From positions 15,018 to 79,017 of the forward strand of contig JANOEP010000072.1 in assembly GCA_031441465.1 (NCBI GenBank): DNA of 64,000 bases, read 5' to 3'. Of the stretch, positions 3,074 to 64,000 are shown piece by piece (within the stretch, counting starts at the first letter, position 1; each line of letters opens with the position of its first letter). The DNA comes from a bacterium. GTDB taxonomy: Bacteria > Krumholzibacteriota > Krumholzibacteriia > LZORAL124-64-63. Below the pieces are notes generated by a model. The model saw only the letters and a program-made list of their open reading frames with translations, was not told the DNA's origin and ran no database searches. Both the position numbers and the translations under genes were made by a program.

Positions 3074-4195
3074 GTGAGAGCGCTGCGTTGCCTCGTGCGC
3101 AAGGAGTTCCTGCAGCTGCGGCGCGACACCGCCCTGTTGCGGGTCGTGTTCGTGCTGCCGATCTTCCAGCTGCTGGTGCTGTCCTACGCCCTGAACAGCG
3201 ACCTGCGCAACGTGCGCGTCGGGACGCTGGACGAGGACCGCACCGCGCTGAGCCGCCTCGTCCTGGACGCCTTCCCGGCCTCGGACGTCTTCGTCGCCGG
3301 GCCCGCGGCCCGCGACGCCGCCGAGCTGGAGGCCCTGCTCCAGGCCGGGGCCTGCGACCTGGCGGTGCGCGTGCCGGCGGGCTTCGAGCGCGACGTTGCG
3401 GCGGGGCGCACGCCGTCCGTCGGGATCGACGTCGACGGGACCAACAGCAGCCTCGCCGGCCGCGGCGCCGGCTACGCCGGCGCCATCGTGATGCGGGAGG
3501 CGGAGCGTTTCGCGGCGGCGAACGCGGGCCCGGCCGCGTCCGTGCCGCGGGTGGCGACGGTGGTGCGGTTCCTGTACAACCCCGAACTGGAGAGCCGCCT
3601 GTTCATGGTGCCGGGAGTGATCGTCATGCTGGTGACGATCATCTCCGCCCTGGCCACAGGCATGGCCGTGGTGAGGGAGAAGGAGCTGGGCACCCTCGAC
3701 CAGGTCCTGGTCACGCCGCTGACGCCGCTGCAGTACGTGGTGGGCAAGACGCTGCCGTTCGGGCTGATCGCGCTGGTGGACCTGGCGCTGGCCACGCTGT
3801 TCGCGCGGGTCTGGTTCCACGTGCCGATGCTGGGCTCGCCGTGGGTGCTGCTGCTGGGAGTGCTGGCCTACCTGCTGGTGACCCTGGGCCTGGGGCTGCT
3901 GGCCTCGGCGGCCTCGAACACGCAGCAGCAGGCGATGTTCACGGTCTGGTTCTTCCTGGTGTTCGCCATCATGCTCAGCGGGTTCTTCTTCCCCGTCGAC
4001 AACATGCCGGAGTGGGCGCGGTGGCTGACGCGGGTGAATCCGATGCGGTACTTCATGGATATCGTGCGGGGGGTGCTGCTGCGCGGCGCCGGGCTGGCGG
4101 ATCTGGCGGGTGAACTGCTGACGTTGCTGGGGATGGGGGTGGCGGCGTTCGGGGGGGCGGTGGTGGCTTTTCGGAGGGAGGGGGTGAGGGGGTAG
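3074..4195 (+). CDS. ABC-2 type permease (YbhR-like)
   Basis: VRKEFLQLRRD, VDGTNS, YNPELES, REKELGTLDQVLVTP motifs. Confidence 0.92.
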   Translation: MRALRCLVRKEFLQLRRDTALLRVVFVLPIFQLLVLSYALNSDLRNVRVGTLDEDRTALSRLVLDAFPASDVFVAGPAARDAAELEALLQAGACDLAVRVPAGFERDVAAGRTPSVGIDVDGTNSSLAGRGAGYAGAIVMREAERFAAANAGPAASVPRVATVVRFLYNPELESRLFMVPGVIVMLVTIISALATGMAVVREKELGTLDQVLVTPLTPLQYVVGKTLPFGLIALVDLALATLFARVWFHVPMLGSPWVLLLGVLAYLLVTLGLGLLASAASNTQQQAMFTVWFFLVFAIMLSGFFFPVDNMPEWARWLTRVNPMRYFMDIVRGVLLRGAGLADLAGELLTLLGMGVAAFGGAVVAFRREGVRG

Positions 4196-4232
4196 GGGCG
4201 GCGGGGTTGCAGGGCGTGGCGGGCGATCTCGA

Positions 4233-4261
4233 TTTACACTGCAGGCGGTGCGGGGTATCCT
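4233..4261 (+). promoter_or_regulatory. Putative sigma70 promoter upstream of the cassette tract
   Basis: TTTACA-17 nt-TATCCT, read by eye. Confidence 0.35.
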
Positions 4262-4383
4262 TGGATGTCTATTGGTTGATAATCGTCAGGTATCGGCGTG
4301 GCGGCAGGTTGTGATTTCTCGGTATTGAGGTATTCAGGAAAACTTGCTGCTATATCTGGATACGTAGTTCAGCTTAAGTCATG

Positions 4384-4390
4384 GTTAGAT
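4384..4390 (+). mobile_element. Integron cassette left junction (core site GTTRRRY)
   Basis: GTTAGAT followed by RBS GAGGAG and ATG at 4412; its reverse complement ATCTAAC matches the downstream R'' ATCTAAG (5216-5222) at 6/7 positions. Confidence 0.6.
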
Positions 4391-4411
4391 TCAATGAGGA
4401 GCACGTGCTGC

Positions 4412-5203
4412 ATGCGTAGAATCTCTTTGTGGCTTTCCATTGCGGTAGTTCTCTGCGCGGCCGTCATGGCGAAATCAGGTGATTCGCCCCTGGACGGCTG
4501 CATGAGCCCGAGTGAATACAACAGCTTGAACCCCCCGTATCAAATAGAAGTCGTCCACTATCGTAACATCGTCTCCTTCGACATCTCTAAGGAGGGCGAT
4601 ACCTGGGCGATGATGAAAGACGGCCGAGGGCACCTGTGGATCTATCGGGACCGCAGGCAAATGCTATCTGCTCCAATTGCACCATGGGCACAAGACGGTA
4701 AGATGAGCTATCACTTCACTGTAAGTCGCGACTTCGTGGCTAGCGCTGTATTTCAGTTCGGATTCGGCCGCCACAGCGGGAAGATAATGCTCGGCGACTG
4801 GGCGGAGACTGATCCCCATTTCGACCTTTCACTCGAGCTTATCAATGCAACAATTCAAAAGGGCGGAGTCCTTCATGGCGAGTTCAAGATCGCTTGTTCA
4901 TCGAAGTACTGTTTGCAGTTTGGCAGTGACTGTATGTGGAATTACGAGATTGCGAATGCGCGCGGAGAAGTAGTTCTGCGACCCGGCGGTGCATGTGGGG
5001 AAACGCTTTGTCAGATGACGCTTGAACCGGGCGTGATCAAGTCGATCCCCTTTGCAATACCGACCGATGTTGGCCGATCCCTCGACGCAGGGGTTCTTCA
5101 AGATGGGTTTTTGCCAACCGGAGAGTACACGCTGACGGCCTATATGGAAGAGCACCGAGATATGCACCTCGAGGCTGCCGCTAAGATCACGATAACGCCA
5201 TGA
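4412..5203 (+). CDS. Secreted hypothetical protein, cassette-encoded; C-terminal half resembles a BsuPI-like Ig fold
   Basis: Signal peptide MRRISLWLSIAVVLCAAVMA; AT-richer codons; LQF..NYEI.NARGEVV...TLEPG...GEYTLTAY pattern (domain call tentative). Confidence 0.65.
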   Translation: MRRISLWLSIAVVLCAAVMAKSGDSPLDGCMSPSEYNSLNPPYQIEVVHYRNIVSFDISKEGDTWAMMKDGRGHLWIYRDRRQMLSAPIAPWAQDGKMSYHFTVSRDFVASAVFQFGFGRHSGKIMLGDWAETDPHFDLSLELINATIQKGGVLHGEFKIACSSKYCLQFGSDCMWNYEIANARGEVVLRPGGACGETLCQMTLEPGVIKSIPFAIPTDVGRSLDAGVLQDGFLPTGEYTLTAYMEEHRDMHLEAAAKITITP

Positions 5204-5215
5204 TCAACGGGCGGA

Positions 5216-5314
5216 ATCTAAGCATGGCTTGCAGCAGACGAAGCCACCCGTCACGTCGCTTGCTGGCGCAATCGCCGCGCCAGCCGTCTTCGCTGCTGAA
5301 ACGCGTCGTTAAAC
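5216..5314 (+). mobile_element. Integron attC site
   Basis: R'' ATCTAAG, 5 nt, L'' CTTGCAGC ... L' GCTGAAA, 6 nt, R' GTTAAAC; TT[G]CAGCAG[A]CGAAG pairs with CTTCGCTGCTGAA leaving two extrahelical bases; begins 13 nt after the stop codon. Confidence 0.85.
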
Positions 5315-5333
5315 ATAGTGGGAAGGCTCACAA

Positions 5334-5915
5334 TTGACCATCGACCTATTTAGCAGAATCAAGGGACAATTGGCGCAAGGACTCGCAGCCGCGCTGCTCG
5401 AAAACTACGCCTATAGAGTGATAAGGATCGGCATTGAAGAGCAATATTTCGAACTGAAGTTTCTTCCTCAGTCAGCCTATCTTGATCTGGGACTTCCGAA
5501 GCAGTTGAGGACGCTTCCGGATCTGTTAGTGACGACCCCAGATTGCCGTCGAGCCTGGATGGTCGAGGTGAAAATGCGCACCAGGCTCACAGGAGCCACA
5601 TTGCAGCAATTGGGGCAGTCACTGCGAGAACAAGCTGTCCTGTGGCCGGAAACGTACACGATTATCTTTCTTGGTCATGCATTTCGTTCAGAACGAGATT
5701 ACATTCAGGATCACCTGCGAGTAATCACGCCCGATAATATTGATATGTTGGTCGAATCCTCCACCGGAGCGGAGAGGAAGTGGGAAGCGCTTCCGATGCT
5801 TCATCATGTATTCGAATTGGTTGACGCCGGCGACTTCTTCACGCTTGCAGATCAGATAGTCCCGGCTATTCAGGCGCTTGGACTCAGTAGCCGCAACGAT
5901 GGGGCCACATCATGA
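5334..5915 (+). CDS. PD-(D/E)XK nuclease-fold protein
   Basis: PDLLV...WMVEVK motif; TTG start 20 nt after the attC core; AT-richer. Confidence 0.65.
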   Translation: MTIDLFSRIKGQLAQGLAAALLENYAYRVIRIGIEEQYFELKFLPQSAYLDLGLPKQLRTLPDLLVTTPDCRRAWMVEVKMRTRLTGATLQQLGQSLREQAVLWPETYTIIFLGHAFRSERDYIQDHLRVITPDNIDMLVESSTGAERKWEALPMLHHVFELVDAGDFFTLADQIVPAIQALGLSSRNDGATS

Positions 5916-6090
5916 CGGCACGGGCTTGACGGAAGTATGCAGCAGTCTCCGTCGTGTTCGGAGACTCAGTGATCTGTTCGCAGGAGAGGCGCTCGGCGCC
6001 TTGATCTGACGCGACATCCGCAGCTGGACGTCAATGCGATCGGCGTCGGGAATGATTACCCTATAGACCCAACCAACATCGGAGGTCCGA

Positions 6091-6477
6091 ATGCGAAGAG
6101 TCACAGGCATCGGCGGCATCTTCATGAGCGCCAAGGATCCCAAGGCGCTGTGCGAGTGGTACAAGAAGCACCTCGGGATCGACGTCCAGCCCTGGGGTGG
6201 CGCCGCCTTCGATTGGGTGGACGCCGAAGGCAACCCGACCAAGGGTACGACGGCCTGGTTGATCGGTCCGGCGGACGGCAAGCACTTCGCTCCGAGCAAG
6301 TCGACTTTCATGGTCAATTATCGAGTCGAGGATCTGGCGGCACTTCTCAAGGCCCTGCGCGAGGAAGGTTGCGACGTGCTCGAGAAGACCGACGACTCGG
6401 AGTACGGGAAATTCGGCTGGGTCATGGATCCGGAGGGCAACAAGGTCGAACTCTGGCAGCCGCTTCAAGGGCAATGA
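6091..6477 (+). CDS. VOC (glyoxalase/bleomycin resistance) family protein
   Basis: RVTGIGGIF..KDPKAL.EWY..HLG, NYRVEDL, YGKFGWVMDPEGNKVELWQP. Confidence 0.9.
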   Translation: MRRVTGIGGIFMSAKDPKALCEWYKKHLGIDVQPWGGAAFDWVDAEGNPTKGTTAWLIGPADGKHFAPSKSTFMVNYRVEDLAALLKALREEGCDVLEKTDDSEYGKFGWVMDPEGNKVELWQPLQGQ

Positions 6478-6504
6478 TGTTCGGTGACTCGCCAGGAGGG
6501 AAGA

Positions 6505-6582
6505 TATCGACCCCTCGCTCCACCGGGCACGCAATCGCCGGCTTTGCCCCCTGTCGGTCGTCGGCCAGCCCGGGCGTTGGGT
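6505..6582 (+). mobile_element. Degenerate attC-like site
   Basis: TATCGAC, 5 nt, GCTCCACC ... GGCCAGC, 6 nt, GTTGGGT; canonical attC spacing and a perfect GTTRRRY, but decayed pairing. Confidence 0.5.
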
Positions 6583-6694
6583 GACTTTGCGCGAGCTGTC
6601 TGGCATCGCACCTGACCCATCCGGCACCGGCAGGGTCGCGTCCGTTCGTAGCCGTACCCTCTGAACCGGTACTCCCGCACCAAAGGGAAACGCC

Positions 6695-7135
6695 ATGTCC
6701 GAAGTGTCGACCTTCAGGCTCTACCTGCTGAGGGCCATGTATCTGCTGATCGCCGTGGGGTTGGGGATCACGATATGGCCGGGCATCCTCTCCCCGCCCG
6801 AGAAATTGTCGCACATGAGCGGCGTGGTCCGCAGCGTGCTCGGGGCGGTCTCGCTCCTGGCGGTGTTGGGGCTCCGCTATCCCCTCCAGATGTTGCCGCT
6901 GCTGTTCTTCGAATTGCTGTGGAAGTCCATCTGGGTTCTCGCCTTCGGACTTCCCCTCTGGTCCGCTCGGCAATTGGACCCGAACACGCGGGAAACGCTG
7001 AACGCCTGTCTCATGGGCATCGTGTTGGTCCCACTCGTGATGCCCTGGGGGTACGTCTTCCGCAATTACCTGAAGGCTACCGGCGACCGGTGGGGCAGGC
7101 GCTCGGCATCGGAAAACAGACCCGGGAGGCGATGA
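6695..7135 (+). CDS. Hypothetical integral membrane protein (about 4 TM)
   Basis: RBS, ATG and four hydrophobic stretches; stop overlaps the next start. Confidence 0.75.
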   Translation: MSEVSTFRLYLLRAMYLLIAVGLGITIWPGILSPPEKLSHMSGVVRSVLGAVSLLAVLGLRYPLQMLPLLFFELLWKSIWVLAFGLPLWSARQLDPNTRETLNACLMGIVLVPLVMPWGYVFRNYLKATGDRWGRRSASENRPGRR

Positions 7136-7506
7136 TGGAACTGGGAGCTTTGTCCGTCAGCTTGGCGGTCAAGGACATCGAGGCCTCGAAGCTCTTCTAC
7201 GAGAAGCAGGGATTCACGGTGTTCGCAGCCGTCCAGGCCCAGAATTGGTTGATCATGAAGAACGGCGGCCACGTGATCGGGTTGTTCCAGGGCATGTTCG
7301 ATCAGAACATCCTCACCTTTAATCCAGGTTGGAACAGCGACGCGCAGCCGCTCGGAGCGTACACCGACATTCGGGAACTGCAACGCCGGCTCAAAGAGCG
7401 TGGCGTGGACATGATGTCGGAAGCCGACGAAAGCACGACCGGCCCGGCCAGCTTCATGATCGTCGATCCGGACGGGAACACGATTCTGGTGGACCAGCAC
7501 GTGTAG
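7132..7506 (+). CDS. VOC family protein
   Basis: LSVSLAVKDIEASKLFYEK, IGLFQGMF..NILTFNPG, PASFMIVDPDGNTILVDQH. Confidence 0.9.
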   Translation: MMELGALSVSLAVKDIEASKLFYEKQGFTVFAAVQAQNWLIMKNGGHVIGLFQGMFDQNILTFNPGWNSDAQPLGAYTDIRELQRRLKERGVDMMSEADESTTGPASFMIVDPDGNTILVDQHV

Positions 7507-7719
7507 GCGACGCGGATCGTCCCGTGCGAAGTTCAACCGCCGGGCTATCGTGAGATGCGGCCCCCTCCCCGACCGCGGCGATAGTGCTGCGATACTCATT
7601 GTCAATATGTTGGTTAATGGTACGCCCGAACGGCCCGCCTGGTCAAGACGGGCTCGATGCTGACGGCCATTCCGGTACAGGGCCTGGACCGGGAGATCGC
7701 ACTCGTCTGGAGTACTGCT

Positions 7720-7750
7720 GTCAAATTCAAAGTCGCAGTTTGATTTTCAC
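7720..7750. repeat. Palindromic motif copy 1 (GTCAAATTCAAA-N7-TTTGAATTTGAC family)
   Basis: GTCAAATTCAAA gtcgcag TTTGATTTTCAC. Confidence 0.75.
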
Positions 7751-7864
7751 CACAGGGAGATGGTGCAAGGTCACCACCGTCGCCGGAGATCGTGCGACCC
7801 GCTTGCCGGTCCGGCCGCCGACCATTCCGGATGACGTGCCGACCGGCGATTGCCCGTCGGGTCC

Positions 7865-8410
7865 TTACCGGTACAGCGCCTTGACCGTCCCGAACGACAT
7901 GGTCTCGTTCGGCACGGCCGCCTCGCAGGTGACGGTCAGCACGAGCTGATCGATCGTCAGGGTTTCGAAGCCCATCGGCATGCAGTGGATCATGTCGAAG
8001 TTGAAGCCGTGGTACTGGGCGATCGACAGGTCGGCCCGGCCGTCCTCGAGGAAGGACCAATCCGTCGGGTCCGCGCCGTTCACGAGCGTGACGGTCGCGT
8101 CGTACGGCTGCTGCAGGGGCGCCGTGAACCCTCCGCCGGCCGCGCCGTCCAGCGAGAAGTCCACCGTGTACTCCAGCCAGAAGTCGTAGCCCCACGGTTC
8201 GTCCATCATCTCGCACCAGCCATGCTGCCCGCCGCCGTAGCCGACGGCGTGGATCGACACGTCGGTCACGTTCACGAGCGTGACGCCGAGGTCGACCGGG
8301 ACCGTACCCGGGACGGGATGGTCGACGGTCCAGGTCACGGTCGCCGCGCCGACGGTCGTCGCGAACAGCACCGGGAACAGCAGAATGAACAACATGCGAG
8401 AGAAGGGCAT
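7865..8410 (-). CDS. Secreted hypothetical protein with C-terminal VPNETMSFGTVKALYR tail
   Basis: Signal peptide (LFILLFPVLFATTVGA), RBS GGAGG, tail shared with 51840 and 61231 ORFs. Confidence 0.8.
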   Translation of the reverse strand: MPFSRMLFILLFPVLFATTVGAATVTWTVDHPVPGTVPVDLGVTLVNVTDVSIHAVGYGGGQHGWCEMMDEPWGYDFWLEYTVDFSLDGAAGGGFTAPLQQPYDATVTLVNGADPTDWSFLEDGRADLSIAQYHGFNFDMIHCMPMGFETLTIDQLVLTVTCEAAVPNETMSFGTVKALYR

Positions 8411-8665
8411 CGGACCACCTCCGGGAATCGGGGAGGGGAAAGCTCACGACTGATGAACACGACTCTATCGAACTGACAATTTCAATTCAAGAGGCATCGA
8501 CCCGATCGAGGGTTACACGTCGCCGTCATTCTGAGAGCGGATAATCCTGATTATAATTATCCTGTTTTCGCCATTGCAGTTTGGCCGTGCATTCAGCGGC
8601 CCGCGGCTGGGCGACAACGTCCTGATCGCCACGGTGCGGCGCGATTCCAACCATGAGGTAACGAG

Positions 8666-39854: not shown

Positions 39855-41312
39855 GTGACCACCTACGAGAGCCTGCAGCCCCGGTCCGTCTGGAGCATCT
39901 TCGCCGAACTGTCCCGCATCCCCCGCGGCTCCGGCAACGAGGCCGCGGTCCTGGACATGCTCAAGGCCTGGGCCGACGCCCGCGGCCTGAAGTGGAGCCA
40001 GGACCAGGTGGGCAACCTCCTGGTGCGCATCCCGGGCACGCCGGGCCGCGAGCAGGCCGCGCCGGTGCTCGTGCAGGGGCACGTCGACATGGTCTGCGAG
40101 AAGAACGGCGCCACGAAGCACGACTTCGCCAAGGACCCGATCAAGCTCCTGGTTGCCGACGGCTGGGTGACGGCCGACGGCACCACGCTGGGCGCGGACA
40201 ACGGCATCGGCGTGGCCATGGGGCTCGCCTTGGCCGACGAGAAGGGGCTCAAGCACCCCCCGGTGGAAGTGCTGCTGACCGTCGACGAGGAGCGCGGCCT
40301 GACCGGCGCGGCCGGCGTCGAGCCGGGCTTCTTCAGCGCCCGCCGCATGATCAACCTCGACTCCGAGGAGGACCGCTCCCTGTTCATCGGCTGCGCCGGC
40401 GGACGCGACTCGGTCATCACCGTGAAGAACAAGAAGAGCGCGCTGGGCAAGGGGCTCGTCGGGCACAAGGTCGTCGTGTCCGGCCTCAAGGGCGGGCACT
40501 CCGGCCTGGACATCGACAAGAACCGCGGCAACGCGATCAAGATCCTCGCCCGCCTGCTGCTGGCCGCGCGCGAGACGGTGCCCTTCAAGCTCGTGGACTT
40601 CGACGGCGGCAGCATGCGCAACGCCATCCCGCGCGAGGCCACGGCCCGCGTGGCGGTGCCCGAAGCGCAGGCCGGCGCCTTCAAGAAGCTCGTCGACAAG
40701 GCGGCGGCGGCGCGCATCCTGAGCGAGGAACTGGCCGGCATCGACGACCTGGCGTCCGTGAAGGTCGCCAAGTGCAAGGTGGACCACAGCCTGGGCGGCA
40801 ACTGCACCCTGCGCGTCCTGCGCCTGATCGAGGCGCTGCCCAACGGCGTGCTGGCCATGAGCCAGGCCATCCCGGGACTGGTCGAGACCAGCTCCAACGT
40901 GGGCGTGGTGAAGACCAAGGGGACCACGGTGGAGCTGGTCTGCTGCAGCCGCTCCTCGAACATGTCGGCCCTGGACGGCCTCGTGCAACGCCACCGGACC
41001 ATCGTCGCCCTGCTGGACGACCGGGCCGCGATCGAGCAGCCCGAAGGCTACCCCGGCTGGCAGCCGAACCCGGCCTCGCTGCTGGTGCAGGCCACGGCGC
41101 GCACCTACGAGCGGATCTTCAAGGTCGTGCCGGAGCTGAAGGCGATCCACGCCGGTCTGGAGTGCGGCCTGCTGACCGAGAAGTACCCGGACCTGGACAT
41201 CGTCTCCTTCGGCCCGGACATCCACGGCGCCCACTCGCCCGACGAGAAGGTGAGCGTGGCCTCGGTCGCGAAGGTCTGGCAGCTGTTCACCGGGGTGATG
41301 AGCGAACTCTAG
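39855..41312 (+). CDS. pepD: Aminoacyl-histidine dipeptidase (M20C)
   Basis: QGHVDMVCEK, GTTLGADNGIG, TVDEERGLTGA, NLDSEE, IHAGLECG. Confidence 0.95.
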   Translation: MTTYESLQPRSVWSIFAELSRIPRGSGNEAAVLDMLKAWADARGLKWSQDQVGNLLVRIPGTPGREQAAPVLVQGHVDMVCEKNGATKHDFAKDPIKLLVADGWVTADGTTLGADNGIGVAMGLALADEKGLKHPPVEVLLTVDEERGLTGAAGVEPGFFSARRMINLDSEEDRSLFIGCAGGRDSVITVKNKKSALGKGLVGHKVVVSGLKGGHSGLDIDKNRGNAIKILARLLLAARETVPFKLVDFDGGSMRNAIPREATARVAVPEAQAGAFKKLVDKAAAARILSEELAGIDDLASVKVAKCKVDHSLGGNCTLRVLRLIEALPNGVLAMSQAIPGLVETSSNVGVVKTKGTTVELVCCSRSSNMSALDGLVQRHRTIVALLDDRAAIEQPEGYPGWQPNPASLLVQATARTYERIFKVVPELKAIHAGLECGLLTEKYPDLDIVSFGPDIHGAHSPDEKVSVASVAKVWQLFTGVMSEL

Positions 41313-41337
41313 ACGGAGCGGCTCCCACCGACACGGA

Positions 41338-41370
41338 AGCGGCCCCTGCTCACCGGGAGCAGGGGCCGCT
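41338..41370. terminator. Hairpin between convergent genes
   Basis: AGCGGCCCCTGCTC-accgg-GAGCAGGGGCCGCT, perfect 14-bp stem. Confidence 0.7.
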
Positions 41371-41389
41371 CGCGTCTGGGGAGACGCGG

Positions 41390-43558
41390 TCACTCGCGGG
41401 GATCGAGCGGCCGTTCGCCGTCGTGTTCCAGGGCCGCGGCCCGCCGCACGGCGTCGCGGAAGTCGCGGACGCGCCCGTCGCCGCGCAGCTCGTCGGCCAG
41501 GTCGTCGGCCAGCGGGATCAGGTCGGCGATGCGGTGCTCCTTCGCCCAGAAGCTGTGCCGCAGGATCTCGGCGAACTCCGCCACGGCGGCCTGCAGGCGG
41601 AACCGCGCCGGCGCGGCGTCGAAGCTGCGGGAGAGGTCCTCCAGGCCGACGCGCTGCTCGATCTCGCGGACCGTGCCGCGGTCGCGGCCGGCCGGCTCCT
41701 CGTAGCGGACGCGCACGGTCGCCAGGCGGGGGGCGCGGCGCCGCGCGAGCGGGTCGGCCCGGTCGTCGCCGCGGACGAGCTTCAGCTCGTAGAGTGCGGT
41801 CACGGTGTGGCCGGCGCCGACTTCGCCCGCGTCCACGTCGTTGTTGCGGAAGTCGCGGTCGGCGACGTCGCGGTTCTCGTAGCCGAGCAGGCGGTAGCGG
41901 TCGACCGTCTCGGGGTCGAACTCCACCTGGATCTTCGCGTCGCGGGCGACGACCTGCAGGGTCGCGGTCAGGTTCTCGCGGAAGACGCGCTCGGCCTCGT
42001 CGGCGCGGTCCACGTAGGCGTAGTTGCCGTCGCCCGAGTCGGCCAGCCTCTCCATCAGCACGTCGTTGTAGTTGCCCATGCCGAAGCCCACCGCCGACAG
42101 GTAGATGCCGCGGTCCGACTCGCGGCGGGCGCGGGCGAGGATGTCGTCGGCCGCGGTCTGCGCCACGTTGGCGACGCCGTCCGAGCAGAGGACCAGGCGG
42201 TTGTTGGCGCCGTCGCGGAAGTGGCGGCGCGCCATGTCGTAGCCCTCGTCGAGGCCGGCCGCGGCGTTGGTGCTGCCCTCGGGCCGCAGTCGGTCCACGG
42301 CGTCGAGGATCAGTTCGCGGCGCGAAGCGTCCACCGGCTCGAGGACCGTGCGCGCGTCGGAGCCGTAGACCACGATGCCCACGCGGTCGCCCTCGCCCAG
42401 CTCGTCCACCAGGACGCGCAGGGTCCGCTTCACCAGGCCGAGGCGGTTCTCCTGCTCCATCGAGCCGGACACGTCGATCACGAAGACCAGCTGCGAGGGA
42501 CGCCGCCGTTCCGCGCTCACGGTGCGGCTCTGCACGGTCAGCCGCAGCAGGTGGTAGCCGTCGCGGAAGGGGGCCGGCGAGCCGTCGGCGTGGATCGCGA
42601 AGTCGCCGCGGCGCTCGGGCGCGAAGCCGGCGTCGAAGGCGTTGACGAACTCCTCGACCCGCACCGCCGCCGCTGGCGGCAATTCGTTGCGGGACAGGTA
42701 GTTGCGCGTCACGGTCCACGACGCCTGGTCCACGTCCACGGCGAAGGTCGACAGGGGGTCGTCCTCGACGGCGATGAACGGGTTCACTCCCGCGTGTTCG
42801 AAGTACATCAGCTCGTAGGGCTCGCCGTTGGGCGGGGTGGTGCCGCCGGTGACCGAGCCGCGGCCGGGTTCGACGACCGGCGCTCCGGGGACCCGCATGG
42901 CGACCTCTCCGCTGCGACCGCCGCGGCCGCTCATCTCGCCTTCGCGCATCCGTACGCCGCCTTGCTTGGCGCTGGATTCCTCGACCGAATCGATGGCGTA
43001 ATCGGAGAGTCGGTCGCCTGTGAAGGACTGCTCCGTCGTGGCGTTCTTGTCCTCGACCATGTACTTCGAACCTTCGACAACGAACGCCTCCGTGGTCATC
43101 AGCACGTCGTCCGGCGAACCGCCGCCGGTATCGCCCGAAATGCCGGCGACTTCGTCGCGGCCGGATTTCCGGGCCTCGCCGGCCGCGGTCCGCGGCGCCG
43201 GCGGCGGCGTGCCGTGCTCCGGCGTCGCCCTCGTGCCGAGATCGGCGGGCGCGGTCGCGGCCGAAGGCACGCCCAGCTCCGTGTAGCGGACGGTCCCGGT
43301 CGCGGGCGCCTCCAGGACGCGTTCGTCCACGATGTGCGTGGACCCGCGAATCGCCGGGTTTTCCCGTGCGACGTCGCCGCCGCGCATGACGAGCAGCGCC
43401 AGCGCGGCCAGCGCCAGGGTGCCCGCGACACCGGTCGCCGGCAGCAACAGGGTGCGCCGGCGGGGACGCGCCTCGCCCTCGGCGACGATCCGCCGCCAGA
43501 GGCTCTCGCGTTCGTGATCGGTGAGCAGGTGCTGGTTCTTATCGAGATGGCTTTTCAT
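41390..43558 (-). CDS. YfbK-like VWA-domain membrane protein with N-terminal anti-sigma-like segment
   Basis: Short N-terminal domain and TM; STFAVDVDQAS, VRVEEFVNAF, MIDAS DVSGSM, SDGVAN, YRLLGYENR, DAGEVGAGH.VTALYE. Confidence 0.9.
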   Translation of the reverse strand: MKSHLDKNQHLLTDHERESLWRRIVAEGEARPRRRTLLLPATGVAGTLALAALALLVMRGGDVARENPAIRGSTHIVDERVLEAPATGTVRYTELGVPSAATAPADLGTRATPEHGTPPPAPRTAAGEARKSGRDEVAGISGDTGGGSPDDVLMTTEAFVVEGSKYMVEDKNATTEQSFTGDRLSDYAIDSVEESSAKQGGVRMREGEMSGRGGRSGEVAMRVPGAPVVEPGRGSVTGGTTPPNGEPYELMYFEHAGVNPFIAVEDDPLSTFAVDVDQASWTVTRNYLSRNELPPAAAVRVEEFVNAFDAGFAPERRGDFAIHADGSPAPFRDGYHLLRLTVQSRTVSAERRRPSQLVFVIDVSGSMEQENRLGLVKRTLRVLVDELGEGDRVGIVVYGSDARTVLEPVDASRRELILDAVDRLRPEGSTNAAAGLDEGYDMARRHFRDGANNRLVLCSDGVANVAQTAADDILARARRESDRGIYLSAVGFGMGNYNDVLMERLADSGDGNYAYVDRADEAERVFRENLTATLQVVARDAKIQVEFDPETVDRYRLLGYENRDVADRDFRNNDVDAGEVGAGHTVTALYELKLVRGDDRADPLARRRAPRLATVRVRYEEPAGRDRGTVREIEQRVGLEDLSRSFDAAPARFRLQAAVAEFAEILRHSFWAKEHRIADLIPLADDLADELRGDGRVRDFRDAVRRAAALEHDGERPLDPRE

Positions 43559-45597: not shown

Positions 45598-45888
45598 GTC
45601 CTCGCTCCTCGATGAGAAACGTCCCGTGTCCGCGTCTGGATCGGGGCAGGTCCCGGTTCCGGACCCCGGGCCGGGATGGCTCGGGTGCGCGGTGCGGCGC
45701 CGGATGATCCGTCGCCGCAGCCCAAATCTAGGCTCCCGGGGCAGGTCGTCCAAAGAAAAACAGGTCCGCGACGCCGTCGCCGTCGTGAACGGTTCACGGA
45801 CGGCGCCCCGGATCGGGACTTGCCGTCCCGGGAAATCCTGCGTATCCCTGTGATGCTTGTTGCAACAACCTTTATCGGAGGCACCCGC

Positions 45889-46811: not shown

Positions 46812-49430
46812 CTAGCGCACCATCATGATGCGGCCGACCTTCGTCTCGCCGCCGGCGCGGGCCCGCACAAAGTACACGCCCGAAGGCGCCGTGCGACCGC
46901 TCGTGTCGCGGCCGTCCCAGGTCAGCAGCACCGTGCCGGCCGCGCTGTCGCCGGCGTGGAGGCTGCGCACGACCTGGCCGCGGGCGTTGTAGACGTCCAC
47001 GGTCAGGGCGCCGGCCCGCGGCAGGTTTAACTGGATGCCGGCCCGGTCGCCGGTCACCCCGCCGAGCACCGACAGCCCGAGGCTGCGCAGCGCGTCCCCG
47101 GCGCCGACGATGTACGACTCGTAGAGGAAGCTCCAGGTATCGCCGAGCGGGCCGCGGGCCGTGGGGTCGGCGGCGTAGGCCCGCCACCAGTAGGTGCCGT
47201 CCACGGTGAGGCCCGGGAAGAAGGACGGGGAGGTGAGGCCGTCGGCGCGCGCGGCCAGGTCGGTGCCCAGGGCGTCGCGATAGACGCGGAAGCCGTAGGT
47301 GACCGGGCCGGGGCCGTCGGGATCGGTCGACGTTGCGGCGACGAGCTCGGTGACCGGTCCCAGGGGGCCGCCGTCGTACGGCGACACGAGCGCCGGCGCG
47401 GGCGGCGTCTGGTTCTGCGAGCCCAGGCCGGTCACGATCAGGTCGTCGAGGTACCAGCCGTCGAGGGTGACCGAGGAGTCCGTCTCGAACCGGAAGCGCA
47501 GGTAGACGGACTGGCCGGCGTAGGCGCTCAGGTCGACTTCGGCCTGGGTCCAGGCCGTGATCGTGCCGTTGTACGTCGCCACCGTGGTCCAGGTGGAGTT
47601 GTTGGTCGAGACCTGCACGTAAGCGTAGTCGTAGCCCGACTCGAGCGCGTACTTGTGCCAGAACGACAGCTTGGCGCCGGCCGGCATGGCGATGGGCGTG
47701 TTCAGCGAGGCGTAGGTCGCGCTGTTGTCGACGTAGTCGCCGGCGGGCGAGTCGTGCAGCGAGTGCGTGGCCGAGTGGCTGGAGTTGGTGACCAGGGCCC
47801 AGGTGCCCGTCGTCGTCCAGCCGGCGAAGCCGCTCTCGAAGGTGTTGCTGTAGACCGAGACGGGCAGGCCCGCCGGGTAGTTCAGGGTGAACGAACTGGT
47901 CTGGCCGTCGGCGACCACGGTCACGTGCACGGGCACGCTGTGGGCCGGCGGGACTCCGGCGTCCAGGGTCACGGAGAAGGGCGTCGCCGTCAGCGACAGC
48001 GAGGAGCGGGCGCCGATCGCGCCCACGGTGCGCTGGGCCTCGTGCAGCTGGAGGTAGGGGTCGTCGCTGGACAGCGTCACCGAGACCGAGGAGGCGCCCA
48101 CGGTCACGCCCAGGTTCTCGAGCGTGAAGGCGAGGCCGGCCGTCTCGCCGGGATCCAGGATGGCGTCGCCGTCGCCGCCGACGACCGCCGGGGTCCTGGC
48201 CTGGACGTAGAGTCCGGCCGCCTTGACCTGGTAGAGCGAGGGGAAGAGGTTCTCGGCGAAGAGCGCCGGGATGCGCGACTCGTCGGGCCAGAACCCGTCA
48301 CCGCTGCCGCCGATCTCGTTGGAGAAGGCGAGGCACTCGGGGTGCTCGCTGGTGGCGCCGTAGACCCAGTCGAAGGAGCCGCCGTTGACCGCGTAGAGCA
48401 GGTCGGGCGCCTGGCCGGGTTCGTAGGCGTTGTACTGGCACATGATCGCGGCCATGTGCTGGAAGACCGCCTCGTCGGGCGAGTTGGTGGACGTGTAGCC
48501 CCACGGGTACAGCGTCAGGTTGCTGTAGGTGTGGAAGCTCTGCGAGGTGATGAAGTTGTGCGAGTTGACGAGGGCCATGATCGCCTGGACCTCGCGCTCG
48601 CTGCCGGCCGAGGGGCCGCGGTAGGTGTCGTCGCTGGGGATCGTGCTGCTGCCGCCGCCGACCCACTGGTACGGGTAGTTGCGGTTGGGGTCGACGCCGT
48701 ACGAGCCGTCGCCGTTGGCGCGCCGGTTCTTGCGCCACATGCCGCCGCCGGTCGGGTTGGTCGACTCGTTGTAGAGGAACCCGTCCGGGTTCACGATCGG
48801 CACGATGTAGATCTCGCGGTTGTCGAGCAGCCAGGTGATCTCGGGATCGACGCCGTAATGCGAGCCGAAGTACTCCACGAGCATCGAGGCGGTTTCCGAG
48901 GACATGATCTCGCGGGCGTGGTGCATGGCGTCGAACAGGATCTCGGGCTCGCCCGCCTCGTTGACCTCGGGATTGTCGGAGACGCGGACGCACCAGATCG
49001 CGTTGCCCTGCAGCGTCGTGCCCAGGCTCCACTTGGCGCTGACGACCTCGGGGTACAGGGTGTGCAGCTGGTCGAGCCAGGTGATGGTCTCGGAGTAGGA
49101 ATGGAACAGGCCGAAGTTCAGGCCCCGGTTGCGCGAGGCGTACATCGCCTCCATGTCGGGCTCCACCACTTCGTAGCGCACGCCGGCCTGGTCGAGCCAG
49201 GTCAGGTCCTTGGGCAGGGCCACGATCTCGACGTGGTGGCCGGGTTTGCGGGCCACGATGTCCAGGCCGGGGTTGGTGCTCAGGGCCGCCTCGACGCCCG
49301 TGGCGTCCAGCGCGACGCGCACCAGGGCGTACTTGGGATTCTCGGCCGAGGCGGTGGACGCCAGGCACAGGACGAGCAGCAGGGCTGCCGCGATCAGGGC
49401 GCGGCTTGGGAGATGCAGGCGAATGGACAT
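46812..49430 (-). CDS. M14 zinc carboxypeptidase with beta-sandwich domains and FlgD-Ig/T9SS-like C-terminal domain
   Basis: Signal peptide; HHARE, WRKNRR, DPNRNY, FHTYS; C-terminus VYNARGQVVR.L...WDGRD.SG...SGVYFVR. Confidence 0.92.
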   Translation of the reverse strand: MSIRLHLPSRALIAAALLLVLCLASTASAENPKYALVRVALDATGVEAALSTNPGLDIVARKPGHHVEIVALPKDLTWLDQAGVRYEVVEPDMEAMYASRNRGLNFGLFHSYSETITWLDQLHTLYPEVVSAKWSLGTTLQGNAIWCVRVSDNPEVNEAGEPEILFDAMHHAREIMSSETASMLVEYFGSHYGVDPEITWLLDNREIYIVPIVNPDGFLYNESTNPTGGGMWRKNRRANGDGSYGVDPNRNYPYQWVGGGSSTIPSDDTYRGPSAGSEREVQAIMALVNSHNFITSQSFHTYSNLTLYPWGYTSTNSPDEAVFQHMAAIMCQYNAYEPGQAPDLLYAVNGGSFDWVYGATSEHPECLAFSNEIGGSGDGFWPDESRIPALFAENLFPSLYQVKAAGLYVQARTPAVVGGDGDAILDPGETAGLAFTLENLGVTVGASSVSVTLSSDDPYLQLHEAQRTVGAIGARSSLSLTATPFSVTLDAGVPPAHSVPVHVTVVADGQTSSFTLNYPAGLPVSVYSNTFESGFAGWTTTGTWALVTNSSHSATHSLHDSPAGDYVDNSATYASLNTPIAMPAGAKLSFWHKYALESGYDYAYVQVSTNNSTWTTVATYNGTITAWTQAEVDLSAYAGQSVYLRFRFETDSSVTLDGWYLDDLIVTGLGSQNQTPPAPALVSPYDGGPLGPVTELVAATSTDPDGPGPVTYGFRVYRDALGTDLAARADGLTSPSFFPGLTVDGTYWWRAYAADPTARGPLGDTWSFLYESYIVGAGDALRSLGLSVLGGVTGDRAGIQLNLPRAGALTVDVYNARGQVVRSLHAGDSAAGTVLLTWDGRDTSGRTAPSGVYFVRARAGGETKVGRIMMVR

Positions 49431-49563
49431 CGGGGCCTCCAGCCTCGTGAGGGTCGCGAGAGCCAAGGATTGAGTGTGGCGGGTACTCGATTCTAGCATG
49501 TCCGGCAGATTGATGCCAGAACTCGGTTTTTGTCGTTCAGAGGGGTTGTGGATTCGCGTCCTG

Positions 49564-49602
49564 ATAGTAACGGTTGACGTTAATAACGTCTCGCGTTACT
49601 AT
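49564..49602 (+). promoter_or_regulatory. higBA-type promoter embedded in a 39-bp imperfect palindrome
   Basis: ATAGTAACG..GACGTTA-A-TAACGTC..CGTTACTAT centred on 49583; -35 TTGACG (49574-79), 17 nt, -10 TACTAT (49597-602). Confidence 0.8.
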
Positions 49603-49611
49603 AGGGGTGGC

Positions 49612-49644
49612 ATGATCAAGTCGCTCAAGGGAAAAATAGGTGAC
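49612..49644 (+). pseudogene. Possible remnant of a higB toxin 5' end
   Basis: ATG gives MIKSLKGKIGD, in frame with higA and resembling the MIKSF(K/R) start of HigB toxins. Confidence 0.45.
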
Positions 49645-49965
49645 ATGAGCGGTCAGAAGCTCCCCCCAGTTCATCCCGGCGAGATCCTGAACGCGGAGTA
49701 CCTCGTGCCGCTGGGGATCAGCCAGTACCGACTCGCCAAGGAAATGAGCGTGCCGCCGCGCCGCATCAACGAGATCGTTCACGGGAAACGTGCGATTAGT
49801 GCGGACACCGCCCTGCGGCTGTCGCGGTTCTTCGGCACGACCGAGCAGTTCTGGGTCAATCTGCAAGTCAGGTACGATATGGAGATCGAGAAGGATCGGC
49901 TTGCGGATCGGCTCGAGAAGGAAGTGTCGGTGTACAAGGCGCCTGGAAGCTGGAACGTGATCTGA
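49645..49965 (+). CDS. higA: HigA family addiction-module antitoxin (Xre HTH)
   Basis: PPVHPGEIL, ISQYRLA, RRINEIVHGKRAISADTALRL.RFFGT...FW.NLQ..YD. Confidence 0.93.
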   Translation: MSGQKLPPVHPGEILNAEYLVPLGISQYRLAKEMSVPPRRINEIVHGKRAISADTALRLSRFFGTTEQFWVNLQVRYDMEIEKDRLADRLEKEVSVYKAPGSWNVI

Positions 49966-49999
49966 CGGTGTGCATGCGGATCGACGGCTATGAACGAAC

Positions 50000-50029
50000 A
50001 AAGCCCCTGTCCATCGACAGGGGCTTTGC
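50000..50029. terminator. Bidirectional terminator
   Basis: CAAAGCCCCTGTC-catc-GACAGGGGCTTTG. Confidence 0.8.
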
Positions 50030-51849: not shown

Positions 51850-52508
51850 GCGGCTTTGATGGTGGACCAGCTTCCCGACTGCGCCGCGACGGTGCCCTCG
51901 TAGACGATGACCAAGCGCGGCGGGATCGCGTAGGCCGTACCCCCCACGGAAATCCAGTCCTCGTAGCCCACTTCGGAGTACACGCCGGCCAGCAGGAAGC
52001 CCGCCCGCGCCGCGCCGCCGGCGACGAGATCCTGCACCGCCGCGGTGACGTCGAAACTCAGATCGACGTTGGCCGACGACGGGAACACCACATCCAGCAT
52101 GGTGTCGGGGCTCAGCGCGTTGCGGTCCACCGAGACCGGTTCGCCCGTCGCCGGGTAGTCGAAGACGCCGACGTAGGGGAAGCCCTCGGAGTCGTCGGAG
52201 TAGCCGGTCTTGCGGACCGTCAGCGTGGCTGAGATCACCGGCTGCTGGGCCGGCACGGCGTCGAGACTGAACTCCAGGCTGGTCGCCCACTCCGAGTCGC
52301 AGCCCGCCGCCTCGCCCCCGATCTTCAGGTGCAGGGCGGTTGAGACGGTGCCGGCCGTGAATTTCGTTTCCTGGAGGCAGGCGCCGGCGCTCTCCTCGCG
52401 CTCGTCGTCGCCGCACTGCAAGGGGGGGATGGTGGCGGTGTCGGAGGCTGATGAAGTTGCCGCTATGACGATGAGCAGATAGCAAAGCAGCGAGATCTTG
52501 TGAAACAT
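51840..52508 (-). CDS. Secreted hypothetical protein (DNRLRE-like fold, tentative) with C-terminal SWSTIKAAYR tail
   Basis: Signal peptide; EFSLDAVP....ISATLT, FDVTAAVQ...GFLL, PPRLVIVY; shared tail. Confidence 0.75.
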   Translation of the reverse strand: MFHKISLLCYLLIVIAATSSASDTATIPPLQCGDDEREESAGACLQETKFTAGTVSTALHLKIGGEAAGCDSEWATSLEFSLDAVPAQQPVISATLTVRKTGYSDDSEGFPYVGVFDYPATGEPVSVDRNALSPDTMLDVVFPSSANVDLSFDVTAAVQDLVAGGAARAGFLLAGVYSEVGYEDWISVGGTAYAIPPRLVIVYEGTVAAQSGSWSTIKAAYR

Positions 52509-52520
52509 GGATCCCCAATT

Positions 52521-53672
52521 CTATCTAGTGAGTGTCTGTGTTTCGGATGGTTTCTTATTGATCGGCTCCACCCGGATCAAGGTGTCAAAGACCGTGCTGG
52601 CGGCGAGACTCGCACCCGCGTCGGTCAAGTGCACGCTATCAGCGAAGGTGGCATCATCCTTGGGCATGGACGCCTCAAGATCGATCAGCACGTAGCCCAC
52701 ACTATCGCAATGCGCACGTGTGGTATTGGCGAATTCGCGTGAAATGGCCAGCAGTCCGGAGGGTGAGTAACTGGGGAGCCAGTGCTGTCGACCCAGCATG
52801 CCGGCAACGGCCGACTTCGACCCGTCGATGCGCAAACTGTTGGGATAGGTGCTGAACGCCACGTCCACGCCATTCGTGGCAAGTTGTCGGGCCAGTTTGT
52901 CCATGAGTTGGGTGTAGGCCGCCAGGTGTTGTTGCGGCGGCGAGTCGAGGAGCACGGTGGGATTGATGGGGTCGGGATGTCGTATTTTGTTTTTCAGACG
53001 TCGCAGGCCGATGGCGAGGGAGTCCGTCCATTTTTCGGGCAACCGGCTTTTCAGGCAGGCGCGGGCCTTGGGAAGAAATCGCGAGTAATCCCGCATCGTC
53101 GGTTTGCAGGCGGCACGCATGCGGGCGATACGATCAGGATTGGAAAACTCCGTCACTTCGGGCGCAGCCTCGCCATTCATGCCCTGGACGAAGCTGAAAG
53201 GACTGATGACCAAGACGACCAGGTCGGGATGCTGCGGCAATACGTAGTGATCGAGGTAGGCTGCGTATTGGAATGGGGACATGCCGACGACGGAGGCGTT
53301 GGAGCACGCGAACCCATACCGTGCGGAGATCTCAGCCAAGGCGGCGGGCCACTCCCGTCCATAGCTCTCGTAGAGTCCGTAGGATTCGGATGTTCCCAGG
53401 CATATGATGTCGGCCAAGACAGAGTCCGTGGCGGCATGATAGGGGTGTGAGCGGAAACCGCGCTCATCGTGCCGCCATTTCTCGAACCTGATGCCGGGTT
53501 GGTTGAAGGTAAGGCCGCGATCGTCCACCCAACGGAGATTCAACGACCCGTAAAAGGCAAGGGGATCGGCTCGGTAATGAATCCAGTCGTCGGCTCGGGC
53601 AGCGATCTCGAAGGTAACCCCCACTAGGATGCAGGCTATCGATAATCGAATCAGTCTGCGGGCGCGTCCCAT
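52521..53672 (-). CDS. SGNH-hydrolase-like protein (polysaccharide O-acylation partner)
   Basis: N-terminal TM, ERGFRS, LGTSESYG, FADSVHL; AT-richer; adjacent to MBOAT. Confidence 0.75.
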   Translation of the reverse strand: MGRARRLIRLSIACILVGVTFEIAARADDWIHYRADPLAFYGSLNLRWVDDRGLTFNQPGIRFEKWRHDERGFRSHPYHAATDSVLADIICLGTSESYGLYESYGREWPAALAEISARYGFACSNASVVGMSPFQYAAYLDHYVLPQHPDLVVLVISPFSFVQGMNGEAAPEVTEFSNPDRIARMRAACKPTMRDYSRFLPKARACLKSRLPEKWTDSLAIGLRRLKNKIRHPDPINPTVLLDSPPQQHLAAYTQLMDKLARQLATNGVDVAFSTYPNSLRIDGSKSAVAGMLGRQHWLPSYSPSGLLAISREFANTTRAHCDSVGYVLIDLEASMPKDDATFADSVHLTDAGASLAASTVFDTLIRVEPINKKPSETQTLTR

Positions 53673-53685
53673 GCAACCACCTACC

Positions 53686-55113
53686 TCAGAACTGGGCGTA
53701 GATAAAAGATTGCGTTTGCACGCCGAGAATGAAGACAGCGTAGGCTGCAAGGGCGATCAGGATGGGCTTACTCCACCAGGGAAGCCGGGCGCTTCCCAAC
53801 AGGCGGGGGTTCTCTTCCTTGCCGGCGAGTACGTCGATCAACATCATCAGAACTGCCAAGGGGGCGACTGTCGTCAGGAATGATCGCCATTCCCCGGCTC
53901 CGTCGGTGATGCCGCCCTTCAAAGCCGAGGTGAGTTGTCCTGGTCCATCGGCACGAAAGATCAGCCAGCCGACGCACACCAGTGAGAACGTGAGCGCGAT
54001 CTCGGTGGCGTGCCGCAGCCGGCCCCGCAAGCGCAACCGGCGGCGCAGCCGCTTCAACGACGGCTGTAGGACGCGGTGCCCCACCAGCAGCAGCCCGAAA
54101 TACAGTCCCCACAGCACGAACATCCACGAGGCGCCGTGCCAGAGGCCGGCCACGAGCATCGTGATCACCAGGTTCAGGTACGCGCGGCCGCGGGAGCGGA
54201 AGGCGCCGCCCAGCGGCAGGAACACGTAGTCGCGCAGCCAGGACGACAGGGACATGTGCCAGCGCTGCCAGAACTCGCTGGGGCTGTGCGCCGCGTACGG
54301 GGTGCGGAAGTTGATCGCGAGGTCGAAGCCGAGGCAGGCGGCGAACCCGCGCGCGATGTCCGTGTAGCCGGAGAAGTCGGCGTAGATGAAGAACGCGTAG
54401 GTGACGGCCGCCAGGGCCGCAGCTCCCGTGCTCGTGAAATCGCCGGCGAAAGCCCGGTCGACGGCGACGGCCAGATGATTGGCGATGACGAGCTTCTTGA
54501 TGACTCCCGCGAACAGCAGATCGCCGCCGCGGCGCAGGGAGGCCAGCAGAGGCGGGCGGGCGGTGGGGTCCAGTTGGGCGAGGAACGGTTGCGGCCGGTC
54601 GATGGGCCCCGCGGTCAGGGATGGGAAAAACAGAAGATAGATGGCGTGGTGGAGGGGCGTGGGCGCGACCGGCAGTCGGCCGAGGTACGCTTCGGCCTGG
54701 ATGGAAATGGCCTTCAGGCAGAAGTAGGACAGGCCCAGGGGGACGGCGATCTCCAGCGTGAGCGGCGCCGTGGTCAGGCCGACGGCCTGCAGGACGGCGC
54801 GGCCGCTGTCGATGAAGAATCCGAAATACTTGAACACGAACAGCAGAATGCACTGGAACGCGATGCCGGCCCGCAGGACGGCGCGGCGCCTGGCCGCGGG
54901 CGGCGTTGCGGCCGGTTGCGTGATGCTGCGGACGACGGCGTGATTGACCATCGCCGCGGCGAGCAGCAGTGCGAGCAGCCGTACGTCCCAGATCGCATAG
55001 AAAAGGACACTGGCGGCCAGCAACACCCAGGAACGGACGCGAGACGGCGCCAGCCAGTAGGCTGCGGCGACGACCGCCATGAACAGGATGAAGCCGGCGG
55101 ACAACAAGTTCAT
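53686..55113 (-). CDS. MBOAT O-acyltransferase (AlgI/DltB-like)
   Basis: PLGLSY, FFP.L.AGPI, YADFSGY.DIA, NF..PY, EFWQRWHMSLS, GLWHGA. Confidence 0.93.
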   Translation of the reverse strand: MNLLSAGFILFMAVVAAAYWLAPSRVRSWVLLAASVLFYAIWDVRLLALLLAAAMVNHAVVRSITQPAATPPAARRRAVLRAGIAFQCILLFVFKYFGFFIDSGRAVLQAVGLTTAPLTLEIAVPLGLSYFCLKAISIQAEAYLGRLPVAPTPLHHAIYLLFFPSLTAGPIDRPQPFLAQLDPTARPPLLASLRRGGDLLFAGVIKKLVIANHLAVAVDRAFAGDFTSTGAAALAAVTYAFFIYADFSGYTDIARGFAACLGFDLAINFRTPYAAHSPSEFWQRWHMSLSSWLRDYVFLPLGGAFRSRGRAYLNLVITMLVAGLWHGASWMFVLWGLYFGLLLVGHRVLQPSLKRLRRRLRLRGRLRHATEIALTFSLVCVGWLIFRADGPGQLTSALKGGITDGAGEWRSFLTTVAPLAVLMMLIDVLAGKEENPRLLGSARLPWWSKPILIALAAYAVFILGVQTQSFIYAQF

Positions 55114-62205: not shown

Positions 62206-62366
62206 CGTGGCAGTCGACACGGGTCGCCTCCGGTTCGGGTGACCGTTGGAACCCCTTGAAATTGGCGGGGTTCCGTGAAATCACATTTAGCGCTTGTCCG
62301 GTTGATCGGGTACACTACTTTCCCGTTTCCGGCCGCCGCCCACACCAGACACGGATACCGTACCAC

Positions 62367-63692: not shown

Positions 63693-63715
63693 GCCGACGG
63701 AGGAGAGCTGCGGTG

Positions 63716-64000
63716 ATGTCGAACGTCGGTCCTGGACAACCATGCCACGTGGCTCATGTCATCGGAGCTTTGCGGACGGGTGGCGCCGAACGGCAACTGG
63801 TAAACTACCTTCTAGCTGCCGACCGGACCGAGTTCCGCCATACGGTGGTGTGCCTCGAAGCGAGGGGCGAACTCGCGGCAACAGTTGAAGCAATTGGCAT
63901 CCCGGTTATTCGTATGCCGATCCGTATGCGGAGCTCCCTTGGCAGTCTCTTGCGCTTCGCGCGCTGGCTGAAAGCCGAAAATGTGATCGTTCTCCACGCG
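63716..64000 (+). CDS. GT4-family glycosyltransferase (3' truncated by window edge)
   Basis: Own translation: MSNVGPGQPCHVAHVIGALRTGGAERQLVNYL...VVCL...GELA...IGIPV...LHA; RBS GGAGGA upstream. Confidence 0.85.
   Translation, partial: MSNVGPGQPCHVAHVIGALRTGGAERQLVNYLLAADRTEFRHTVVCLEARGELAATVEAIGIPVIRMPIRMRSSLGSLLRFARWLKAENVIVLHA

Follow-up and report, generated by a model that had tools for sequence, protein, structure and literature searches.

Integron gene cassettes outside an integron in a metagenome-assembled chromosome: a probable remnant of a cassette array

Two gene cassettes downstream of an ABC-2 transporter operon

We analyzed a 64,000-nucleotide stretch of a bacterial chromosome, hereafter called the window. 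The host genome has a GC content of about 71%, and its proteins find counterparts of at least 90% identity in metagenome-assembled genomes (MAGs) labelled "bacterium", Candidatus Latescibacterota, and "Gemmatimonas sp." Apart from the cassettes described here, the window is made up of chromosomal housekeeping genes, e.g., those for TIM, malate and glutamate dehydrogenases, and peptidases. The cassettes begin 188 bp downstream of an ABC-2 transporter permease gene (3074-4195, plus strand), which is the last gene of an operon co-oriented with them. The initial annotation had read this gene as an ABC permease and not as intI, in agreement with its Pfam match (ABC2_membrane_3, 1e-46). Between the permease gene and the first cassette, we found neither a promoter nor a terminator above chance level.

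Cassette 1 starts with the core GTTAGAT (4384-4390, plus strand), placing the crossover between G4384 and T4385. The core is complementary to the R'' box of the cassette's own attC site at six of seven positions, as the near-perfect match proposed at the outset implied, and at all seven in the homologous cassette of the metagenomic array L003. A ribosome-binding site (GAGGAG, 4396-4401, plus strand), retained in the homologues of L003 and L004, lies 10 nt 5' of the ATG start codon of a 263-residue open reading frame (ORF) with a signal-peptide-like N-terminus (4412-5203, plus strand). A 99-nt attC site (5216-5314, plus strand) follows 12 bases past the stop codon. The initial annotation had placed the core, ribosome-binding site, ORF, and attC site correctly. 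Cassette 1 is a genuine integron gene cassette, composed of a promoterless ORF and an attC site. Its ORF has a GC content of 53% and a third-position GC content (GC3) of 0.60, compared with a GC3 of 0.93-0.96 in the flanking host genes; the GC3 of the ORF in cassette 2 is 0.55. Both cassettes are compositionally foreign with respect to the host genes.

The product of cassette 1 matched nothing in sequence searches of Pfam, NCBIfam, PADLOC, and the PDB, and the cassette had no match in a plasmid collection. Its relatives amount to three clusters in a search of 5.8 billion sequences, and the protein family comprises 15 representative clusters among 1.84 billion. We predict a secreted all-beta protein of an orphan family. 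The AlphaFold models of the two cassette proteins are of low confidence (pLDDT of 51 for cassette 1 and 54 for cassette 2), and Foldseek searches with them returned nothing at E<=0.001.

Cassette 2 (5308-5990, plus strand) starts at G|TTAAAC; its right end is approximate because its own attC site is missing or vestigial. The ORF (5334-5915, plus strand) encodes 193 residues with a PD-(D/E)xK-like motif (D63/E78/K80), and the PD...(E)VK pattern is conserved in all five homologues compared. The predicted order of secondary-structure elements would be compatible with a PD-(D/E)xK nuclease fold. Sequence searches of Pfam, NCBIfam, PADLOC, and the PDB gave no match for this product either, and the plasmid collection yielded a weak partial match. 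Homologues with 65-77% identity reside in co-directional arrays in three other array contexts. In two of these loci (L018 and L019) the homologue is preceded by a different attC site in each case and followed by an attC site that is short in L018 and truncated in L019. Since its homologues sit in arrays flanked by attC sites, the ORF of cassette 2 is a cassette gene, too. The region 3' of the ORF in the window scored 1.5 bits with the family models described below and gave a fold z-score of -0.8; it contains only a short hairpin and a degenerate GTTCGCA. This search relied on family-specific models and folding, which a divergent attC site could escape.

The flank upstream of cassette 1 showed neither a fold nor a model match as an attI or attC site, nor any similarity to the loci we retrieved, among which were the regions close to intI in L007 and L012. 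However, the 14 nucleotides immediately preceding the core (CAGCTTAAGTCATG, 4370-4383, plus strand) are similar to CAGCTGAAGC-NNNN-GTT, the pattern of the family, with the correct spacing to GTT, and could be a stub left over from the 3' arm (L' plus spacer) of an attC site once located upstream. The stub region is complementary to 5214-5230 at 15 of 17 positions. When scored with a position weight matrix, it ranked 27th among 1152 AAC sites, within the top 2.3% (p of about 0.02 for a likeness recognized only in hindsight), and 4370-4383 was not matched by the covariance model. These features hint that an upstream attC site was truncated, leaving its L' stub behind.

The attC site and its family

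An attC site acts as a hairpin formed by its bottom strand, in which an R box and an L box are accompanied by two extrahelical bases; cleavage by the integron integrase (IntI) occurs in R', between G and TT. The site in the window is an imperfect palindrome with the following parts on the plus strand: R'' (ATCTAAG, 5216-5222, read from the sequence), L'' (about 5227-5243), a central stem (5244-5287), L' (about 5288-5302), and R' (GTTAAAC, 5308-5314), whose sequence conforms to the GTTRRRY core expected at the 3' terminus. Folding gave -29.5 kcal/mol and a z-score of -3.7 for the bottom strand, a stability reached by none of 200 shuffled sequences, compared with a z-score of only -1.5 for the top strand. 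Such a strand asymmetry is expected for attC sites, which recombine through their bottom strand. The two extrahelical bases assigned initially, G5231 and A5238 (bottom-strand C and T), coincide with the two unpaired, bulged columns of the family consensus structure. The spacers, which the initial annotation described as the canonical 5 and 6 nt of an attC site, come closer to 4-5 and 5-6 nt, the exact lengths varying with the limits set for the L box.

We built two covariance models without the window copy. The first, R1, derives from 44 bottom-strand copies of family attC sites in other genomes and scored the window site at 91.6 bits (E=1e-31, minus strand, 5214-5320), whereas the runner-up within the 64 kb, located in GC-rich DNA that lacks an R box, reached 15.9 bits. 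The second, R2, is broader (39 more diverse copies) and gave 83.5 bits with no other detection in the window, although it is mostly a sequence model because RNAalifold kept only 11 pairs. The check by covariance model that had been suggested for 5216-5314 thus returned very strong scores. No second attC site appeared anywhere in the 64-kb window with the family-specific R1 and R2 models, run with filters off, or with nhmmer. A crude scan for R''/R' boxes with pairing arms also ranked 5216-5314 first, which is not decisive by itself. Rfam and tRNA scans of the window found nothing. Weak attC-model matches at 41305-41404 and 45656-45760 (about 16 bits, E of about 0.007) are GC-rich, lack R boxes, and were judged to be chance; the former sits between convergent genes and resembles a terminator hairpin.

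The attC site belongs to a homogeneous family whose other members are about 83-89% identical to it. Among species-representative genomes, a search with the conserved-arm pattern identified 13 loci, of which eight fall on a single MAG contig of 4.72 Mb (JADJQR010000001.1), from which loci L007, L009, L010, L011, L014, L015, and L016 were all taken. Model searches revealed at least 47 family attC sites on this contig, arranged in arrays on both strands with a spacing of about 0.5-1.5 kb. Some cassettes on the contig are apparently duplicated with identical R'' flanks, e.g., L011 692-802 and 2187-2297. The 44-copy alignment yields a consensus in which the R box is accompanied by unpaired spacers, the L-box stem carries two conserved bulges, and the central stem varies; 97.2% of the cells are paired. 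Compensatory changes occur in 18 of 31 pairs, as compared with 5.2±1.5 in shuffled alignments (none of 500 reached 18) and 4-9 in controls with slid partners. Family members end in RYYYAAC...GTTRRRY and separate unrelated co-directional ORFs.

Integron integrases of the TIGR02249 family adjoin family attC sites in L007 (422 bits) and L012 (448 bits), well above the cutoff of 265; the two IntI proteins are 64% identical to each other. In both loci, intI lies upstream of, and co-oriented with, cassettes bearing the attC family of the window, and the first cassettes next to intI carry toxin-antitoxin-like genes. This adjacency suggests that attC sites of the family would be recombined by an integron integrase. 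The presumed source of the window cassettes is a pool of large sedentary integrons with one conserved attC family and a co-oriented intI. The integron-bearing MAGs have a backbone GC content of about 0.69-0.71 and cassettes of 0.57-0.62. Since they share the high backbone GC content of the host, the low GC content of the cassettes alone is no proof of cross-phylum transfer. Family attC sites were also observed on contigs binned as Planctomycetota and Fibrobacteraceae (L006 and L013, the former only 1.5 kb long), which reflects either a widely spread cassette pool or mis-binning. This undescribed and very homogeneous attC family of high-GC uncultured bacteria may merit a study of its own.

Cassette 1 itself recurs in other arrays. 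The homologue in L003 shares 87% amino acid and 89% nucleotide identity, starts with the identical GTTAGATTCAATGAGGAGC directly after the attC site of an acetyltransferase cassette, and is followed by another, different cassette. A comparison of L003 with the window shows that the cassette is common to both from GTTAGAT to the attC site and that the neighbours differ on both sides; the similarity stops just before GTTAAAC, where a different cassette follows in each context. A more distant homologue (67%) in L004 is flanked by family attC sites on both sides. The palindromes following the homologues in L003 and L004 are about 85-89% identical to the attC site of the window. One cassette in two sets of neighbours, with the boundary at G|TT, is the signature of integrase-mediated shuffling, as read from the compared sequences.

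Using L004 as the outgroup, we identified changes specific to the window copy of the attC site: C5222G, G5272T, and G5301A. C5222G converts the R'' triplet from AAC to AAG and creates a C-C mismatch beside the cleavage position; 43 of the 44 family members have a C-G pair at this position of the R box, and L003 has ATCTAAC. G5272T touches the central stem and G5301A the outer L stem. The fold of the site is retained despite these substitutions. A relative-rate test counted six window-specific and five L003-specific changes in the attC site as against 21 and 36 in the ORF, an excess that is not significant. Given the known importance of the AAC/GTT triplet, the window attC site is probably a poorer recombination substrate. 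The description of the cassette as intact in the initial annotation was hence slightly generous: all parts are in place, but R'' ends in AAG instead of AAC and two stem pairs are weakened.

A hypervariable interval without an integrase

The absence of a nearby integrase, noted at the outset, holds throughout the 64 kb: neither Pfam searches with all large ORFs nor a six-frame motif scan revealed an integrase or an integrase pseudogene. When the two cognate IntI proteins were used as tblastn queries, the top match (E=8e-4) fell inside a peptidase gene. We also found no flanking IS element or other vehicle that could have brought in the cassettes.

Five sister loci (L020, L100, L101, L102, and L107) share both flanks with the window at about 88-92% identity. 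The permease gene is syntenic and about 91% identical in the sister genomes. Similarity to the sister loci stops between 4191 and 4225 and resumes at 7095 in L102, at 7723 in L101, and at 8635 in all of them. Because 7095-7517 is shared with L102 and 7723-8426 with L101, the segment unique to the window genome is 4226-7094 (plus strand), within the variable interval between the permease and a Ser/Thr kinase gene. Other genes occupy this interval in the relatives: NhaA only in L100, TusA-DsrE-OsmC-NhaA in L101 and L107, DUF5128, an AsnB-like gene, a VOC gene, and NhaA in L102 and L103, and unrelated sequence in L020. The permease-kinase interval is a hypervariable hotspot. We also observed that the stretch 4226-8634, between the ABC-2 permease gene and the Ser/Thr kinase-PD40 gene, resembles a recombination or insertion hotspot, and that NhaA is carried by all sister loci except L020, whose downstream part is unrelated, and is missing from the window genome.

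None of the sister loci contains a family attC site. An identical and uninterrupted locus in distant relatives, which the initial annotation had named as the case against a cassette, finds no counterpart in close relatives; all five sister loci carry other genes in its place. This outcome and the covariance-model scores both favour the initial interpretation. A precise empty GWT site was not found among these five cassette-free loci, because all of them differ from the window over the whole of 4226-7094.

The genes past the ORF of cassette 2 approach the composition of the host, with GC3 values of 0.80 and 0.83 for two VOC/glyoxalase genes, 0.86 for a membrane protein gene, and 0.94 for a minus-strand gene encoding a secreted protein. 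Behind the VOC and other downstream genes we detected no attC site, with fold z-scores between -1.15 and +1.9 in the regions downstream of the cassette 2 ORF and of the VOC genes and no model match. The VOC gene at 6091-6477 has thousands of homologues with 80-93% identity in metagenomes and is uninformative as to cassette status. The relatives of its 128-residue product include proteins in MAGs labelled Gemmatimonadota and Acidobacteriota, an unusually high cross-phylum conservation for a small accessory enzyme.

We made several further observations farther along the window. A gene on the minus strand (59427-61115) encodes a protein similar to the topoisomerase VI B subunit (Topo-VIb_trans, 6e-61) in an otherwise bacterial chromosome, and the adjoining ORF (61231-62220) has no Pfam match. 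Three segments (49000-50000, 52000-54000, and 62000-64000) have a GC content of 0.58-0.63 against a background of 0.70 and are possibly other acquired segments; for the ORFs at 52521-53750 and 62202-63194, Pfam matches are weak or absent.

Origin of the cassettes and relation to known systems

We consider the locus to be probably, although not with certainty, a decaying two-cassette remnant of an array that is now immobile and resides in a hypervariable chromosomal interval without a nearby integrase. The two cassettes would be a small remnant of a cassette array, in which cassette 2 has lost its own attC site. The array fragment may have arrived by recombination, or an older array may have decayed in place. 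The cassettes would probably be fixed where they are, because an integrase and a usable partner site are lacking and the R'' triplet is mutated to AAG. If they are expressed at all, transcription could come from read-through of the upstream ABC-2 operon, a purely inferential step.

The most serious competitor of the array remnant, which we regard as doubtful, is a direct insertion by attC x attG recombination. An integrase encoded at another place in the genome, or supplied by a transient element, would have inserted a circle of one or two cassettes at a genomic GWT, and the second attC site would later have been lost by slippage. The attC x attG route has been shown experimentally, and the loss of attC hairpins by slippage has been proposed (10.1101/2022.09.11.507474). 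In the window, both junctions read G|TT, relatives lack the cassettes, and the upstream flank is devoid of an attC fold or model match, all of which speak for such an insertion. However, the relatives offer no precise empty site, as the similarity to the sister genomes breaks off 155 bp short of the junction; the window yielded no integrase; and the 14 nt before GTT look like an attC L' arm, which is unexpected of a genomic site. The two features of the upstream flank pull in opposite directions: the stub favours an array remnant, and the unstructured flank favours direct insertion.

Two other explanations carry far less weight. It is very improbable that the cassettes belong to a complete integron with its integrase and attI site just outside the examined DNA. 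Because intI lies upstream and co-oriented in the parent integrons, upstream is the place to look, but the 4.2 kb on that side are an ABC transporter operon syntenic with the sister genomes, in which a further 10 kb upstream are also free of an integrase, and the 59 kb downstream contain housekeeping genes and no recombinase. That the palindrome at 5216-5314 might be a terminator, a REP-like element, or some other structured repeat instead of an attC site is barely credible. Its position after a stop codon and its stable fold would suit a repeat of that kind, but the site has neither a T-run nor an Rfam match, and the RYYYAAC...GTTRRRY ends of a family whose members separate unrelated co-directional ORFs, the proximity of that family to integron integrases, and the covariation of a hairpin with conserved bulges all argue for attC.

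Beyond the remnant of a decaying array, a broader interpretation may be entertained, tentatively and at rather low odds of being correct: the permease-kinase interval would be a recurrent capture site in an uncultured lineage of the FCB group, where cassettes from the sedentary integrons of co-resident high-GC bacteria become fixed and domesticated. If this were true, the locus would be a snapshot of the process, with one attC site lost, one eroding at the cleavage-site triplet, and a host operon driving expression. The cargo consists of orphan proteins and has no immediate functional or resistance relevance. The value of the locus lies in presenting clean, comparatively verified cassettes outside an integron in a lineage represented only by MAGs, with the same cassette found in a real array as well. 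It supports the view that cassettes escaping from integrons end up at ordinary sites in chromosomes, where their recombination sites are subsequently lost.

Sedentary chromosomal integrons are exemplified by the VCR arrays of Vibrio cholerae, whose cassettes have a homogeneous attC family. The family described here is similar in its homogeneity, its 47 copies on one MAG contig, its duplicated cassettes, and its toxin-antitoxin-like first cassettes; in contrast, the window holds a single copy outside any integron and without an integrase. An intI located upstream of and co-oriented with the cassettes characterizes the inverted integron-integrase group of Cury et al. (PMC4889954). This likeness concerns L007 and L012, the presumed source integrons, and not the window locus.

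The closest counterparts of the window locus are cassettes stranded outside integrons. By default, IntegronFinder 2 defines a CALIN by at least two attC sites (PMC9024848), whereas a SALIN is a single attC site with an associated coding sequence and no other att site or integrase nearby (10.1101/2022.09.11.507474). Such stranded single-attC cassettes are already well documented, with 3400 SALINs reported in 21,105 RefSeq genomes (Loot et al., 10.1101/2022.09.11.507474). The initial annotation had offered a CALIN, a solitary array, or an insertion at a secondary site. The cassette indeed lies outside an integron, but with two cassettes and only one attC site detectable by the family models, the locus is a SALIN rather than a CALIN by the software definition. 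It shares with both categories a chromosomal attC cassette without intI or an intI pseudogene, the lack of IS elements, the small size, and a cargo of unknown function (PMC4889954; PMC9024848; 10.1101/2022.09.11.507474). It differs from them in its uncultured host lineage, represented by MAGs alone, in combining two recognizable cassettes with one detectable attC site, which places it between the two software categories, and in its mutated R'' triplet.
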